DNA of 64,000 nucleotides from Negaprion brevirostris. Its lineage: Eukaryota. A program made the translations under genes and the position numbers. The notes under the pieces were generated by a model. The model was not told where the DNA came from, did not search any database, and worked only from the letters and a program-made list of their open reading frames with translations. The first letter of the stretch is position 1, and every line of letters starts with the position of its first letter. This document shows, piece by piece, positions 7,891 to 49,240 of this stretch. The stretch spans positions 88,484,128 through 88,548,127 of the forward strand of contig JARDVH010000025.1 of NCBI GenBank assembly GCA_030324005.1, in the 5' to 3' direction.

Positions 7891-8010
7891 TAACAAAACA
7901 ATAACTGTCATTTATACAGGAACTTTAACAACAAAACAATAACTTTCATTTATACAGGAACTTTAACAACAAAACAATAACTTTCATTTATACAGGAACT
8001 TTAACAACAA
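7891..8010. repeat. Tandem repeat, about 3 x 38 bp
   Basis: Unit acaacaaaacaataactttcatttatacaggaacttta, at the 3' end of an old minus-strand L2-like remnant (about 7900-8850). Confidence 0.9.
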
Positions 8011-13890: not shown

Positions 13891-15109
13891 GAAATACGAA
13901 ATCAGTATATTGTAGTCTATTTCTTGGACTCCACAAAATCCTATATTTCCATGCAGACAATTGTTTAAAAAACAGAAAATTGTTTTCTAAGATCCTCTTA
14001 CTCACTTTCAAATCCTTCCAAGGTCTTTCATCCTTTTACCACATTAATTTTTTTCCAGCCAGTCTCCTCAATCAACTTTAATTCTACTGGTATTGTTCAC
14101 ATCCCAAATCTCTCTGCTCCACTATTGATGGACATAGGAATTCCCTACCCTTTATTACCATCTTCCCTGCTTTCAAAAACCTTTCCCTTTGAATAGGCTC
14201 TCAAGGTTTCCGCTTTTCTTTTTTTCTAGTGTCCATCGTCTTACATCTGTCTAATTAAGTACTTGTCCCTCTGTGTGGGCAATGCAATGGAAAGACGTTT
14301 TTTGTGTCACAAATTTTATTCCTGTGACAATAACCCCTTTTCACTTTTCTATACAATATGGTTTCACATATCTTACAGGCTGAGACTTCTGTACAGTGCT
14401 ACCTGCATGCAACATTGTCAGAAGCGTTTTGTAGTGACTTGACAAATAAGAAAAAGAGCAAGGAAATGTAATAATGATTTAGCTGCCACTTTCTTCTTAA
14501 CCAATACCATCAAGAGTCAATTATTATTCTCAGTGATGCTTCTAAGAGCCGTGCACAAAAGAATAGCAATGTTTGCTAACAAAACAGCAGTTGCTAGTCA
14601 GTGTATCTCAAATGTTTTGAGCTATGTCTGAAGCTTAATAAGGAACTACATATATGCATTTTAATTTCTCCCCATATTTTACCAACATATACACATTTTC
14701 CCAATGACCACATTTTGATAGCATATGCAATGTTTAACAGCAACAGTTTAATTCTTAAATATATCATTGTTAATGCGATCTTCCTATATCATTGTTATTG
14801 CACCTATTCCATTTCCTGAGCTGTATGCACCAGTGTCCAGTGTTAAAATGAATTCACATATCACTTGTTGCTTTTGCTCATTTTTTGTTGTTGCAGTTAT
14901 GTACAAGGCCATTAATATTAATATCATCCAGTCTCTTCTGCTTTGAGGAGCTAACCAGCCCCCAGCCCAATCGCCTAAGTATCTTTTCATTCTGCTTTAG
15001 TGGATTACCATTTCAAAACCACTGTATAGACAGCACCCAGTAGCTGACCTACAATCCAGGTGCTGATATGCACTCCCCCCTCACGTGTATCACCCCCAAG
15101 CATTGACAA

Positions 15110-15187
15110 GGTAGATGATCTGGAGGAGGGAACCAAGTGTATGGTGTCGAAATTTGCTGATGACACCAAGATTGGTGGAACGGCAAA
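15110..15187 (+). mobile_element. CR1 RT fragment running into a gap
   Basis: DDLEEGTKCMVSKFADDTKIGG contains the RT catalytic FADD motif. Confidence 0.85.
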
Positions 15188-15489
15188 NNNNNNNNNNNNN
15201 NNNNNNNNNNNNNNNNNNNNNNNNNNNNNNNNNNNNNNNNNNNNNNNNNNNNNNNNNNNNNNNNNNNNNNNNNNNNNNNNNNNNNNNNNNNNNNNNNNNN
15301 NNNNNNNNNNNNNNNNNNNNNNNNNNNNNNNNNNNNNNNNNNNNNNNNNNNNNNNNNNNNNNNNNNNNNNNNNNNNNNNNNNNNNNNNNNNNNNNNNNNN
15401 NNNNNNNNNNNNNNNNNNNNNNNNNNNNNNNNNNNNNNNNNNNNNNNNNNNNNNNNNNNNNNGTCATTCCCACCCTGTGTGTAATTGAC

Positions 15490-15720
15490 GGAAACCCCGT
15501 GGCCTCTGCCGGCCAGAGAGCCCGCCCAGTCCCCGGGCGCCGCTCCGCCGATTGGCCAGCTGCCGCCCGATGGGCTGCCGCCTCCATCTTACCATTGGCG
15601 GAGCCGCCTGTCCGTCACGGTGAAGCGCGCGGAAGGGAGCGGGGCGGGGCGCGAGCCGCCCGTCAAGGTGGGAGTGAATTGAGTCGGGATTGGGCGGGGT
15701 CTTTCTCTCGGTCTGCCTGG
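15490..15720 (+). promoter_or_regulatory. TATA-less CpG-island promoter with inverted CCAAT boxes and GC boxes
   Basis: CpG-dense patch in CpG-poor DNA. ATTGG at 15551, 15594 and 15689; GC boxes at 15521 (CCGCCC), 15641 (GGGGCGGGGC) and 15692 (GGGCGGGG). Confidence 0.85.
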
Positions 15721-15762
15721 CTGGAGCTGAACCATTCTGTGGAGCGACTGAGCGGGAGGAAG
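15715..15762 (+). other. Probable non-coding exon 1 of the 14-3-3 gene
   Basis: Lies directly after the promoter elements and ends in a good donor, AAG|GTTAGT (GT at 15763). Beta/zeta/theta genes have a non-coding first exon. Start position is approximate. Confidence 0.6.
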
Positions 15763-16286
15763 GTTAGTGAGATCCTGGGATATTCAGCACTCTCTGTCTC
15801 TGTGTGTGTGTATGTATGGGGAGGCGAAGCGAAGGGCATGTTTGAATTAATAAATGAAAGAAATTATTTAAATTTGATACCAGGATCAAATCTTTCTGTT
15901 TGGATAGATTTTTAATTTAAATCCGCCATTTTCCTGTTTTTGTTGGTAATCTGCTGTTTGCACATATTGAAAATTAGGACCGATTGTGGAGGGAAAATGT
16001 GTAAGTCCAGGGATTCAGTCAGCGTGTGTGTGTCTAACTATATTCTACTTTATCGCTTCCTCTGCTGACTTCCTATCCGCTCACCTTATTTTATTTCTGT
16101 TAGCAGTGACTGGAGAGAGTGATAAAAGGAGAGGGGAATTAAAGCGGACGGGATCCTTGTTCCCTCTCCACTGTTTGTTTTTTTGAACAAGGAAAACACT
16201 CCCAAGAGAAAGCCAAAAAAAAACCCCCCTCCCTTTTCCTCGCCCAGGCCAGCCCGGAGTTTTGATCAGCCGGAGGGGAACAAGCC

Positions 16287-16623
16287 ATGGAGAACACCGA
16301 GGGGGTCGAGCCGAGCCAGCAGGCCGAGCAGGTCAACTGCAGCAGCAACCCGGAGAACGAGGAGCAGGTCCAGCGGGCCAAGCTGGCCGAGCAGGCCGAG
16401 AGGTACGAAGATATGGCGGCCGTGATGAAAGCGGTGACCGAGCAGGGCTCCGAGCTGTCGACCGAGGAGCGGAACCTGCTCTCGGTCGCCTACAAGNNNN
16501 NNNNNNAGGGTCATCTCCAGCGTGGAGCAGAAGGGCGGCACGGACGAGAGGCACCTGGAGCAAATCCGAAATTACCGGGAAAAAGTGGAATCGGAGCTGA
16601 GTGAAATCTGCAACGACGTCCTG
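16287..16623 (+). CDS. YWHAQ: 14-3-3 protein (theta-like), first coding exon, with 21-aa N-terminal extension
   Basis: Kozak GCCATGG at 16284-16290. Translates MENTE...[44 protein letters not shown], then a 10-N gap (16497-16506), then [39 protein letters not shown], then donor GTAAG at 16624. 14-3-3 family is certain; the theta paralogue call is tentative (about 0.6). Confidence 0.95.
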
Positions 16624-18569
16624 GTAAGAACAAAAGGGGTAGGGTGTGTTTGATCCCGGTGAGGGGGGTGGGGGGGGGGGAACTCAGCTGACAATAATTG
16701 TTTTTTAAACAGTGAGATGGTCTACCTGGAGGCGCAGAAAGCAACTATTATTTCGTCGAAACACCTTTTTGAGGTGTTAAATGTTCAATTCTAGCGTCCT
16801 TTTCCTTTTATAAAAGGAAGACTTTACGAACGAACTGAAATCTAGGAAGTCTGGTTTATAGGGCGCTACTTTTTCGGTCTGAGGCTATTATAGACTTTCT
16901 GGGTCAGTGTGCCATTCGCCTTAAGCACGTGTTTAAGATGTAAAAAGACCTGAAATGGTCCTTCAAACCTAATTTCTTCATAACGGCAGGGTTGCGACAA
17001 CGTGATTGTTTTTAAAATTTGTATCCAATTGATCCTCGATACTGCAACCATTCCATGGACTGACTTTTTTGAAAAAGTTAATCAGGGACTATAATATTTT
17101 TGGTCGTACCAAGGTTACTGTTGGCTCATTATGGGCAAAAAATACAGTTCCTTATGTACTCTTTGGATTTGCATAACTGATTACTGAACAAATAAGGAAA
17201 ATTGAGTTAGTTTTAAACATCTAGCCGAAGCTATTTGGCCAATACTTTCACTCCTGCGAGAAGAAAGTCTCTTGCCTAATTTATGCCTTCTGTGGTTGTG
17301 TTGGCTAAATACTCAATGTAATTGTCACTATTGTTGACTGTACATCGATTCTTAATTCGAACAGTCAGATTAAGACTCTGTCAATAATATGCTAGTGCTG
17401 AATTAAGCACCCAGACTGAATTGTAATTGGTATGACTGCTGCTTTTTTATATTCCCTACAATAAAAGAATTTTCACTGCTAAAGGACCTGCCTGGGCCAA
17501 AACCCTCTAAAAATGCGGTTGATTTTGTTATGTTGTGGTTTTTTTCTTAAAGCTAGGCATTTTCTATGCAGTGGGAAAATTAGTCTTTCTGTTTTTTTGC
17601 CACCATTGTAGTAGCTTGTTGAGAGATTTTGTTTGTAACGTTCCAAATCAGTGTGTTCATTGAATGCTCAGGATAATGCCTGGGACTGTAAATGGCTTGA
17701 CATGTTTTGTGGTGGGTTAGTTTGACTAGGATGTAAATGCTGGGTGTGGTGAATTGGTGTGAATCATATACTATTGGTTATCTTTATTTTGTTAGCTTTT
17801 TGCAGCCAAAATTGCTTTGGTGTTTAGTAGTACAAATTGCAAATCTGTTTGTGCTTTTTTTAATCAATAGTTGAAGCATTTTTTGAAGTTTTCAACCAAA
17901 CTAGTCAATCAGTGAATGTCATCTGTTGGCAGCCCCAGACTAAGTTCTCAATTTGCCTGTTCTGACTTGCATCTCATTTTTAGATATCCTGAATGTGGGT
18001 TTTACTTCTATGCTACTGGGAGTGCAACCTACATAAAGTTACTCAAATTGCAACTGTAACGTGAACGTAGGAAGTTTTGAACAACTGCAGGACACCAGGT
18101 CAGTTCTGTGTAAGGGAATCTGAGGCCTTGAGCTTGAAACAGGGCCATGAAAGGAATTTGAAATGCAGCTATTTCGGCATTAAAACTTCCTATCATAGGC
18201 TTAAATGTGTGAGGACGCTGGCAAGACGTTGGTTTGATGTACTGTCTGCTCCCTTTCGTTAACATGTGAACTGTTAATAAAAGTGGCAATGATATTGCAG
18301 TATTTTCACAAGATTAGTAATCCAGAAACCCAGGGTCGTACTCTGGGGACCTGGGTCTTAATGCCACCATGGCAGGTGGTGAAATTTGAATTCCATGAAA
18401 ATCTGGAATTAAAGTCTAATTGTTGTAGAGCCTTCCTGGAAAAACATTTTGAAAATGTATTTGAGCTGNNNNNNNNNNNNNNNNNNNNNNNNNNNNNNNN
18501 NNNNNNNNNNNNNNNNNNNNNNNNNNNNNNNNNNNNNNNNNNNNNNNNNNNNNNNNNNNNNNNNNNNNC

Positions 18570-19010
18570 GCTGGTCACAGGCCTCCAGTTTGAAAAACAA
18601 CTCTCTACAACCACCCTCTGGCTTCTGTCAAGAAGCCAATTTTGTCTCCATTTAGATACCTCACCCTGGATCCTGTGAGATTTAACTTTAAAACAACCTA
18701 CTATGCAGTCTCTTGTCAAAGGCCTTGCTAAAGTCCATGTAGATAACATCAACTGCACTGCCCTCATCTACCATCTTGGTTACCCCTTCAAAAAACTCAA
18801 TCAAATTTGTGAGACATGATTTTCCACTCAGCCTTGCTGACTGTCCCTAATCAGTCCTTGTCTCTCTAAATGCCTGTAGATCCTGTCTCTCAAAATACCT
18901 TCCAACAATTTACCCACCACAGATGTGAGGCTCTCTGGCCTGTAGTTCCCAGTCTTTTCCCTGCAGCCCTTTTTAAACAAAGGCACAACATTTTCTACTC
19001 TCCAATCTTC
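18570..19010 (-). mobile_element. CR1 LINE RT fragment
   Basis: Minus ORFs read DWRVENVVPLFKKG.REK.GNYRP.SLTSVVGKLLEGILRDRI and NWL..RSQRVVV..CFS.WRPVTS. Confidence 0.9.
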
Positions 19011-20118
19011 ATATTTTTGTAAATGCAAAACAATCCAAGGCAAAATCCAATACCAGCGATTGCAATAACATTACTCCAGTTCACTAAGGACTTATGTTAA
19101 AATTACACGGATTCAGCCCACATTCAGCAGCAGGCCCACCTTCCAACTCCTGGATTAAGGGCAAACCACCAATCACAGCCAGAGTGAGGACGCTGTAATA
19201 TTGACAGCACCCCGGGGAGACGCCAGCCAGAATGCCTGGGCGCACCAGGGAGATGCCAGCCAGACAGCCTAGGTGCCCCCAGGGAAGCTGGCTCTGACTA
19301 GTCCAGTCTTGAGGAGCAGATTGATGGATTCAGAAGTATAAACCACACAGTGAAAAGGAAAACAAATCTTTCCGCCACAAGCTTTTTAATTATATTGAAA
19401 CATTATAATTATAATGAAACTTTCTTTAAAACCCAGATCCCGAAACAGAATTATATTTTTTTTCAAGTAACATAATCCCTCAACTGGTAAGTACAGCTCA
19501 TTTTTCTATATAAATATAGAAAGACAGGAGAAATATTCAGTGCTGAGGACAAGTAACAGGATGGGGGGTAGATAAACCATGGCAAAGTGATGCACACTCA
19601 TGCATATAATAGACTAGATGTGGTGCTATATAGCCTACGGAAAATCTTTTAAAGGGGTAAGTCAGATGTTACAGAACCTAACTTGTATCAGATGCAAATT
19701 AAGTAGTCTAGTGGGGATATATTTCCCAATGTTGTGCCAATTATTAACAAGGAAACTTATCACTAATTCAGGAGCAAAGCATATTCTTCCATACCATAAA
19801 TGTTAAGATATTGTACTGTCATTTCTCACTGGCATCAGTTATGCCTTTGACCCAGTGCAAAGGATCAAACTCAGGCAAGTGTAAATATCTTGTTGAGCTC
19901 TAACTATTGCCAGGGATCCAGGTTGAATTCCAGCCATGGGTGACTGACTGGGTTTCCTCTCGATATGGAGTTTTCGTGTTCACCTTCCATGTGGATTTGT
20001 TTTCCCCTGGGTTTTCTGGTTTCCTCCTGCAGTCTGTAGGTCAGTTATTTTAACCATGGTAAAATACGTGGGGGATAGGGAGAGGAGTTGTCCCTGGTTA
20101 AGATGCTGTTTTGGAGGG

Positions 20119-21909: not shown

Positions 21910-23070
21910 TCGAATGGTTAGTCATGGTAAATCAGTTCCAGCGTCCCAGACTTTCTGGATCCACTACAGTTGGCCTACTGTCACAACAGGTCCACAGCAG
22001 ATGCCATCTCCCTGGCTCTGCACTCAAACCCTGGGACATCTATGTCAGACTCCTTTTTGTTTGATTACAGCTCAACCTTCAACACCATTATTCGCATGAA
22101 ATTTATTTCCAAACTCCGTGGCCTGGGCCTCGGCTCCTCCCTTTCTTACTGGATCCTGAATTTCCTAACCCGCAGACCACAATCGGTAAGGATAGGCAAC
22201 AACACCTCCACAATAATCCTCAACACCTGTGCCCCACAAGACTATTCTCAAGCCCCTACTACTTATACACCTCTGTGGCCAATTTCCCTCCCAGTTCAAT
22301 TTTCAAGTTTGCTGATGACACCACTGTATTGGGTCAGATCTCAACAACGACAAAACAGAGTCCAGGAATGAGAGAGAATCTGGTGAACTGGTGCGATGAC
22401 AATCTCCCTCGATGTCAAGAAAACAAAGGAGATATCATTGACTTCAGGAAGTGTAAAGGAGAACATGCCCCTGCCTACATCAATGGGGATGAAATAGCAA
22501 GGGTGTCCAGATCACCAACAACCTGAACTGATTTCCACCCTACCTCCATGCCGATACTATAGTTAAGAAAGCCCACCAAAGCCTCTTCTGTCTCAGAAGA
22601 CTACAGAAATTTGCATGTCAGCTATGACGCTCCAGCTTTTACAGATACAACCAGAAAGAATGCTTTCTATGGTGCATCACAATCTGGTAAGGCTCCTACT
22701 TTGCCCAAGACCACATGAAACTACAAACGGTAGTGAACATAGCCCAATCCATCATGCAAACCACCCCCCCATCCATTGACTGTCTACACTTCCTGCTGCA
22801 TCAGCAAAGCAGCCAGCATAATTAAGGACTCCATGCACCTCAGACAGAAAAATCTGAGGTCAGGTATCAACTGACTTGAAGTTTCTTTCCTGTTACTGTC
22901 AGACTTTTGAATGGACCTACCTCGCATTAAGTTGATCTTTGCTCCCTAACTATGATTGTAACATTACATTCTGACTCTCTCGTTTTCTGAGTGGTATGTC
23001 TTATGTGTATAGCATCCAAAAAACCATGCTTTTCACTATGTTAATACATGTGACAATAAATCAAATCAAA
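21910..23070 (+). mobile_element. Rex1/Babar-type LINE, 5'-truncated
   Basis: AY..NRSTADAISLALH, LFDYSSTFNTI, WILNFLTRRPQSVRIG, KFADDTTVLG; 3' tail aataaatcaaatcaaa at about 23055-23070. Confidence 0.8.
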
Positions 23071-43166: not shown

Positions 43167-43290
43167 GGATTGTTAGATAATTACTTGATTCCCAAGGCTA
43201 GTAATTCAGAAAGCAAGGTCTTCTACCTGAAAATGAAAGGAGATTACTATCGGTACCTTGCTGAAGTTGCTTCTGGAGAGGACCGGAAAA
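43167..43290 (+). CDS. YWHAQ: 14-3-3 coding exon 2 (124 nt)
   Basis: Acceptor tttgtttag, then [41 protein letters not shown] plus 1 nt, donor GTATGT at 43291. The 124-nt size matches the conserved beta/zeta/theta exon. Missed by the ORF track. Confidence 0.97.
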
Positions 43291-43732: not shown

Positions 43733-43896
43733 AAGCGATAGGAAACTCCCAAACTGCTTACCAGACAGCCTTTGAAATTGGTAAGGAACATCTGTCATCA
43801 ACGCACCCAATCCGTTTGGGCCTTGCCCTTAATTTCTCAGTGTTCTACTATGAGATTCTCAACTCTCCCTCTGATGCTTGTGAACTGGCAAAAAAA
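43733..43896 (+). CDS. YWHAQ: 14-3-3 coding exon 3 (164 nt)
   Basis: Acceptor ctgttttcacag; the phase-1 join gives [55 protein letters not shown]; donor GTAAGT at 43897. Confidence 0.97.
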
Positions 43897-48503: not shown

Positions 48504-48599
48504 GCATTTGATCAGGCTATTAAAGAGCTGGATATTCTCCAAGATGATAGCTATAAAGACAGCACCCTCATTATGCAGTTGCTTAGAGACAACCTTACA
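48504..48599 (+). CDS. YWHAQ: 14-3-3 coding exon 4 (96 nt)
   Basis: Acceptor cctattag, then [32 protein letters not shown] (14-3-3 signature 2), donor GTAAGT at 48600. Confidence 0.97.
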
Positions 48600-49198: not shown

Positions 49199-49240
49199 TT
49201 ATGGTCAAATGAGAGNNNNNNNNNNGAAGATAACAACTAA
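49199..49240 (+). CDS. YWHAQ: 14-3-3 last coding exon
   Basis: Long pyrimidine tract ending cctag at 49198, then LWSNE, a 10-N gap (49216-49225), EDNN and TAA at 49238-49240. True tail length is uncertain because of the gap. Confidence 0.9.
   Translation, partial: LWSNEXXXXEDNN

Follow-up and report, generated by a model that had tools for sequence, protein, structure and literature searches.

Few hubs of eukaryotic cells are as conserved as the 14-3-3 proteins, and the theta isoform of bony vertebrates begins at helix 1, without an extension. A natural addition before this helix is found in the long form of 14-3-3 beta (Met-Thr-Met start in records P0139, P0144, and P0148), which keeps the inner Met, both forms being producible. 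We analyzed a 64,000-nucleotide (nt) stretch of Negaprion brevirostris DNA (hereafter, the window), which carries on its plus strand a 14-3-3 theta gene whose predicted product is extended by 21 residues ahead of helix 1. Our main reading, to which we assign a probability of roughly 0.6, is that the theta gene of sharks and rays underwent an early-elasmobranch tandem duplication of its first 19 codons, and that the additional copy now forms an obligatory acidic tail, predicted to be disordered, outside the dimer core.

Six exons of this gene are visible in the window. A CpG island (15463..17250, no strand) lies over the promoter, exon 1, and exon 2, with CpG observed/expected ratios of 0.74 to 0.91 in six of the seven 500-nt windows between 15251 and 17250 and of 0.51 in the remaining one, relative to 0.20 to 0.44 in the flanks. 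Exon 1 (15686..15762, plus strand) is non-coding; its start is the lowest position covered by any spliced contig, and the true 5′ end may differ. It is followed by a 341-nt intron in the 5′ untranslated region (UTR) (15763..16103, plus strand; ends GTTAGT and TTAG), across which the contigs of runs X14 and X8 are joined (joint 15760>16102, cut at +2, in two of four runs). The 5′ UTR part of exon 2 (16104..16286, plus strand) contains no ATG and has an in-frame TGA eight codons 5′ of the start, and the start codon itself, ATG 16287, has a purine at −3 and a G at +4. The extension opens with a copy of canonical codons 1 to 16 (16287..16334, plus strand), which matches codons 22 to 37 at 34/48 nt and 7/16 amino acids (aa), and continues into a slippage-prone AGC/AAC linker (16335..16349, plus strand; NCSSN) of five residues in the window versus three (NSN) in the sevengill shark protein P0005. 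This linker likely represents decayed ERY codons 17 to 19 plus two extra codons. Functional helix 1 (canonical residues 1 to 19; 16350..16406, plus strand) follows, with Pro where the ancestral Met stood and an intact LAE motif.

The remainder of coding exon 2 (16407..16623, plus strand, with a GT donor after 16623) was recognized by Pfam PF00244 on both sides of a short N run and by tblastn with P0002; the N run occupies the place of 10 orthologue codons, leaving canonical residues 50 to 59 unread. Coding exons 3 (43167..43290, 124 nt, AG/GT ends), 4 (43733..43896, 164 nt), and 5 (48504..48599, 96 nt), all on the plus strand, are 97.7%, 96.3%, and 97.0% identical to P0002, respectively. The coding part of the last exon, up to TAA (49199..49240, plus strand), is likewise interrupted by a short N run, such that part of the C-tail is unread there; its flanks resemble the P0002 C terminus by eye, and tblastn gave no match. 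No neighboring gene was identified within the window. Two strong alternative acceptor-like sites (16247 and 16252) lie in the exon 2 5′ UTR, are unused in the contigs, and would retain the ATG either way. Elsewhere in the window, we recognized by eye LINE reverse transcriptase-like frame fragments (~15050-15190, 18300-19070, and 21931-22523), and a 38-nt tandem repeat is present at 7892-8010 (3.1 copies, 98% matches).

PF00244 was detected in codons 31 to 70 (52.7 bits, E = 5.6e-14, cut-off of 33.2), and the next 39 residues alone scored 31.2 bits; in both Pfam and PDB sequence searches, the 14-3-3 domain runs onward from about residue 22. P0002, named theta polypeptide a at NCBI, is 96 to 100% identical to the window protein over four core stretches (tblastn), and its annotation already includes the extension. 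In a 36-row core tree, 12 elasmobranch and 13 theta-type rows split from beta, zeta, and invertebrate rows (98/92), a grouping to be read in light of a sampling that comprised one true vertebrate zeta, lacked sigma and elasmobranch beta or zeta, and may be subject to long-branch effects. At position 58, Ala instead of Ser is found in nine of 10 elasmobranch orthologues and in all 10 bony-vertebrate theta sequences; the window is unread at this position. The assignment of the gene as the shark/ray 14-3-3 theta orthologue is thus supported.

The first-pass annotation of this DNA had proposed that the 21 additional residues arose by tandem duplication of the helix-1 coding sequence. Consistently, ATG 16287 opens 70 codons up to K70, the equivalent of K49, and we reproduced the identity of 34/48 nt between 16287-16334 and 16350-16397. 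Codon 22 (16350) reads CCG, i.e., the inner ATG is gone, and hence no normal-length start exists. More specifically, codons 1 to 16 match codons 22 to 37 at 10/16, 9/16, and 15/16 of the first, second, and third codon positions, respectively, with seven of the 16 codons identical; all seven shared residues use the same codon, for which exon codon use gives a rough expectation of ~0.024. When the extension codons were shuffled and the best ungapped 16-codon placement on codons 22 to 70 was taken, the mean was 25.2 matches (sd 1.7; P = 0.0004, 5,000 shuffles). Similarly low values were obtained in the fixed register (P = 0.0001, 200,000 shuffles) and upon pooling codons 1 to 42 (P = 0.0002), and the harshest control, a 3-codon block shuffle that preserves GAGCAG-type micro-units, gave P = 0.021. 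Codon bias alone, the caveat attached to the original proposal, is thus insufficient to account for the match.

Upstream of ATG 16287 the similarity vanishes (four to six of 30 matches). The helix-1 DNA (16362-16409 of the window) is itself a degenerate 9-nt repeat (27/39 matches; TRF row 16362-16400, score 43) and a likely slippage substrate; because of this periodicity the background of similarity is raised, with other offsets of 9, 72, and 54 scoring 33, 31, and 29 of 48, respectively. A profile built from 20 helix-1 19-mers of non-elasmobranchs gave P = 0.001 for the window copy and P ≤ 0.002 for eight of 11 sequences, the other three failing. Similarity of the extension to its own helix 1 reached P ≤ 0.05 in 13 of 20 proteins; significant ungapped self-similarity was absent from the remaining seven extensions (catsharks, carpet sharks, and sawshark). 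Position 6 is Gln and position 3 mostly Asn in either copy of P0005 and the batoids, versus Leu/Met6 and Lys/Arg3 in all 15 bony-vertebrate theta/beta sequences. An origin from the start/helix-1 codons is therefore upheld, as the similarity exceeds composition-matched chance and begins at the ATG.

The 63-nt unit originally put forward was not borne out, since a spacing of 21 codons between the last EQ/DQ pair of the extension and the helix-1 AEQ occurs in the window alone. Ten of the 20 sequences have a spacing of 19 codons, five have 20, and four have either 36 or 16. A 57-nt ancestral unit (codons 1 to 19) is likely, the 63-nt offset being a lineage-specific state. Under a 19-codon model, the window matches at 39/57 nt with a 2-codon gap. 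The P0005 protein has an extension of exactly 19 residues, of which nine of 16 match its own helix 1 in register, and both P0005 and the batoids match from the Met on, with Glu2 shared and the EQV and AEQ blocks correctly spaced. Later lengthening proceeded in units of nine residues in catsharks (extensions of 26, 35, and 44 residues), six in carpet sharks, and seven in the sawshark; the 9-residue unit equals the spacing between the two EQ pairs of the copy. Relative to P0002, the 21-residue extension of the window reflects a 6-residue difference and the gain of one linker residue. In a comparison of P0004 with P0011 (Scyliorhinus torazame), and with P0012, two records of one species differ by one 9-residue unit of the extension (283 versus 292 aa), and a third record in the cluster measures 274 aa; this difference reflects either polymorphism or assembly collapse.

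We compared the window with contigs from four runs, i.e., X1, X8, X11, and X14, the latter three from other organisms and presumed to be RNA; 18 further runs were not drawn on. The X1 contig is identical to window 15463-16460 (0 differences), and X1 may be the source of the window DNA itself. The contigs of the three other organisms are likewise unchanged at 16350, none having ATG there. Contigs of two of these organisms (runs X8 and X14) skip the 341-nt GT..AG intron and join 15762 to 16104, and the X11 contig starts at the same exon 2 edge; X11 and X14 contigs placed at 16377-16416 were ignored, as their loose ends come from another 14-3-3 gene. ATG 16287 is the first AUG in the spliced contigs, preceded by a covered leader of 260 nt without ATG, and a protein initiated at 16413, the following in-frame ATG, would lack helix 1. 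Splicing into a downstream position, the other route by which the extension could be bypassed, found no counterpart: there is no acceptor-like site from the ATG to codon 43, and all four such sites between 16060 and 16420 fall 5′ of the ATG.

Across X8, X11, and X14, variable sites numbered 15/183 in the UTR versus 0/63 in the extension (P = 0.010), or 6/149 versus 0/63 once homopolymer-adjacent sites were removed (P = 0.12). UTR indels measured 1, 17, 2, and 1 nt. In X8 (organism E), the linker carries a 33-nt Gly/Ser insertion at 16339-16343 that is in frame and free of stops by hand count; organisms B and F are identical to the window at this point. Given the contrast in variation between UTR and extension, the in-frame indel, and the single usable ATG, translation from ATG 16287 is likely, and the extension is likely an obligatory part of the protein.

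The extension is found throughout the elasmobranchs sampled. All 19 elasmobranch-type theta orthologues examined, drawn from three homologue searches and cluster listings (one of them a JGI protein), carry an extension of 16 to 44 residues, and none has the ancestral Met; with the window, they make up the 20 rows considered here. By legible names, they cover carcharhiniform, lamniform, carpet, saw, and sevengill sharks, skates, stingray-type rays, and an electric ray. The extension was a selection criterion in the first homologue search. The two full-length searches carried no such bias, and no elasmobranch theta of normal length was among the best 120 rows listed in these two. The 20 rows exclude P0009 (E = 4.8, no extension) as well as P0006, P0007, P0016, and P0017 (Logan, skate-type); the latter four are P0013 duplicates, partial, or have upstream-ATG starts. 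No chimaera sequence was among the matches listed in the homologue, 50%-representative (one match, P0001), and cluster searches, in which 90% clusters can hide members; therefore, the only bound on the age of the extension is that it predates the divergence of sharks and rays. ESM Atlas matches comprised only generic 14-3-3 clusters. Long overhangs also occur in other 14-3-3 proteins, most of which still have Met at the canonical start; we treated these proteins as over-extended predictions.

All 20 proteins begin with Met-Glu, a type of start that NatB generally acetylates, and none has a later Met, be it within the extension or around canonical position 1. An Asn-Pro junction is present in 19 of 20, the exception being P0137 (Narcine bancroftii). 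The core of P0137 is about five residues longer and its branch is long. Beyond the Met-Glu start and the Asn-Pro junction, no shared motif is common to nearly all extensions. P0005 and five of seven batoids have the same first 15 residues, at a core identity of 86 to 87%. A SUMO-consensus-like motif, psi-K-x-E/D, was considered as a general function and rejected, as it occurs in eight of 20 extensions (P0004, P0011, P0005, P0008, P0019, P0013, P0014, and P0015) and is absent from the window. Some purifying selection seems to act on the tail sequence, whereas its length is free.

The acidic character ascribed to the tail in the first-pass annotation is general, with a net charge of −2 to −5 in 20/20 extensions. 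The change of LAE to QAE proposed there is seen in only four of 20, whereas the commonest state is K-P-x-E-Q (16/20); the LAE leucine has been lost from the copy in all 20, being replaced by Pro (16/20) or another residue, and Pro occurs in 18 of 20 extensions. The suspected disorder is also predicted by AlphaFold2, with pLDDT below 50 and no helix over residues 1 to 24 of P0002 and 1 to 19 of P0005, though the tail alignment is shallow (17/60 rows) and the low pLDDT may stem from that. Both models are monomers of these orthologues, not of the window protein. In both models, the predicted helix starts at the junction Pro. For that of P0002, a close orthologue (pLDDT 78), DSSP reads helices 1 and 2 as a single run (8 elements), and solved 14-3-3 chains filled all 50 rows listed (TM 0.86 by target). 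Helix 1 itself would not be replaced by the tail.

Within the core, 25/25 positions of the phosphopeptide groove (K49, R56, R127, Y128, and their neighbors) are invariant in 10 elasmobranch, 10 bony-vertebrate theta, and five beta sequences; in the window itself, K49 and R127-Y128 are read and R56 falls inside an N run. Likewise, LAE, R18, D21, Y82, and E89 are conserved in 10/10 sequences. Mean core identity is 80.4% among the 10 elasmobranchs, relative to 89.6% among the 10 bony-vertebrate theta and 89.7% among the five beta sequences, a contrast that is no more than indicative, since neither age nor sampling is equal across the groups. The elasmobranch stem branch is long (0.25), and 13 elasmobranch positions share no residue with any of the 15 bony theta/beta sequences, with clusters at 1-6, 151-162, and 187-207. 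Carpet sharks have the most diverged elasmobranch theta cores. Positions 74, 78, and 81 of helix 4, which presumably face helix 1 of the partner, vary among elasmobranchs (R74, Q78, and N81 in the window).

Several explanations can be weighed against these data. That the extension is untranslated or an assembly artefact, with the protein starting downstream, might be suspected from the N runs in two coding exons of the window and from the public orthologues being gene predictions; nevertheless, the X1 contig is identical, the ATG lies inside spliced contigs with no acceptor-like site before codon 43, a start at 16413 would remove helix 1, and the frame is maintained in 19/19 orthologues, and we regard this explanation as the least probable of all. 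Scarcely more credible is a copy that folds back as a pseudo-helix and contests the partner interface with helix 1, shifting the protein to monomers. The copy is derived from helix 1 and tethered beside it, and a change of LAE to QQR makes human 14-3-3 zeta monomeric (PMC10926215). That mutation, however, affects the functional helix, which is intact in shark theta, and LAE is kept in none of the 20 copies; the universal loss of its leucine, together with the predicted disorder in two models without helix and Pro in 18 extensions, makes a competing pseudo-helix unlikely. Repeated slippage of GAG-CAG-rich 9-nt units that lengthened the frame up to the capture of an upstream ATG, with no single helix-1 duplication, would account for the quasi-periodic helix-1 DNA (9 nt, 27/39), the high scores at offsets 9, 54, and 72, the modest block-shuffle value of 0.021, and the 6-, 7-, and 9-residue units of several lineages. 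We nonetheless consider this origin quite unlikely, given the 9/16 in-register matches of P0005 and the batoids from the Met on, with Glu2, EQV, and AEQ correctly spaced, the 39/57 nt under the 19-codon model, and a similarity that stops at the ATG.

A different role for a tail of the same origin deserves more weight. The tail may be a working regulator that, together with a co-evolved helix 4, shifts the choice between homo- and heterodimers or client access in a specialized isoform. The conserved first 15 residues, the fast core (80.4% versus 89.6% and 89.7%, with a stem branch of 0.25), and the variable positions 74, 78, and 81 all argue against a purely passive tail, and the helix-4 variation fits an altered interface better than it fits a passive tail. 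Against a regulator stand the length range of 16 to 44 residues, the tolerated 11-codon Gly/Ser insertion, the near-universality of only Met-Glu and Asn-Pro, and the unchanged groove and LAE. We thus hold the regulatory role possible but doubtful. Still more tentatively, shark and ray theta may be a specialized isoform with a tail that was copied from the dimer helix and disarmed through a Leu-to-Pro change, in which repeat length serves as a tuning knob that, with a relaxed helix-4 surface, sets the 14-3-3 partners and clients taken, and whose length may even vary within a species. A seemingly constrained sequence combined with free length speaks most for a peripheral flexible spacer, and a flexible spacer with at most modest influence on partner choice is most likely what the tail is.

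Under the duplication reading that we favor, an in-frame 57-nt duplication beginning at the ATG would have come first. The inner ATG would then have changed to CCG, giving an Asn-Pro junction that is likely the new helix 1 cap; Asn-Pro-Glu is a helix capping sequence. Leu12 of the copy would have become Pro, which would stop its competition for the interface, and ERY would have become NSN. Finally, slippage on the 9-codon-spaced GAG-CAG repeats and on the AGC run would have produced lengths of 16 to 44 residues.

A whole vertebrate lineage would accordingly have a fixed, self-derived, length-variable tail at the dimer helix, together with a core divergence about twice that of bony vertebrates. 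The natural series of 16 to 44 residues bears on the tolerance of the dimer edge and on the evolution of partner choice among isoforms, and it would be a clear case of a predicted disordered extension born from a folded helix. As it stands, the extension is an evolutionary curiosity in an annotated gene. The variant of this well-known protein is nonetheless real and spans the lineage; its origin is well supported, and its unit length is now corrected.

The extended proteins are publicly annotated already: the elasmobranch theta records XP_078069278.1, XP_041043838.1, XP_067840359.1, and XP_055491271.1, for example, are direct orthologues and carry the name only (theta polypeptide a or 14-3-3 theta-like). 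In the full-text literature searched, we found no description of the elasmobranch theta extension; PMC4906603 concerns a different gene, YWHAE, in tiger shark. Invertebrate-type zeta sequences P0150 and P0154 (Logan, ENA) carry a 12-residue extension ending in Ser-Asn-Pro, with Gln6, and in this resemble the elasmobranch junction, but they have an invertebrate-type core by eye, are shorter, and contain no visible helix-1 copy. Their extension is likely convergent, and the presence of Gln6 and Ser-Asn-Pro in such unrelated sequences indicates that these states can arise independently. In the long form of 14-3-3 beta, the addition amounts to two residues and is not a duplication, unlike that of elasmobranch theta. 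With vertebrate theta/tau (YWHAQ; PF00244), the shark and ray proteins share the groove, the helix-1 LAE motif, Ala58, the all-helical fold, and their grouping in the tree; relative to bony-vertebrate theta (242 to 254 aa), they differ by an additional 16 to 44 residues, Pro in place of Met1, a polar residue 6, and a faster core.
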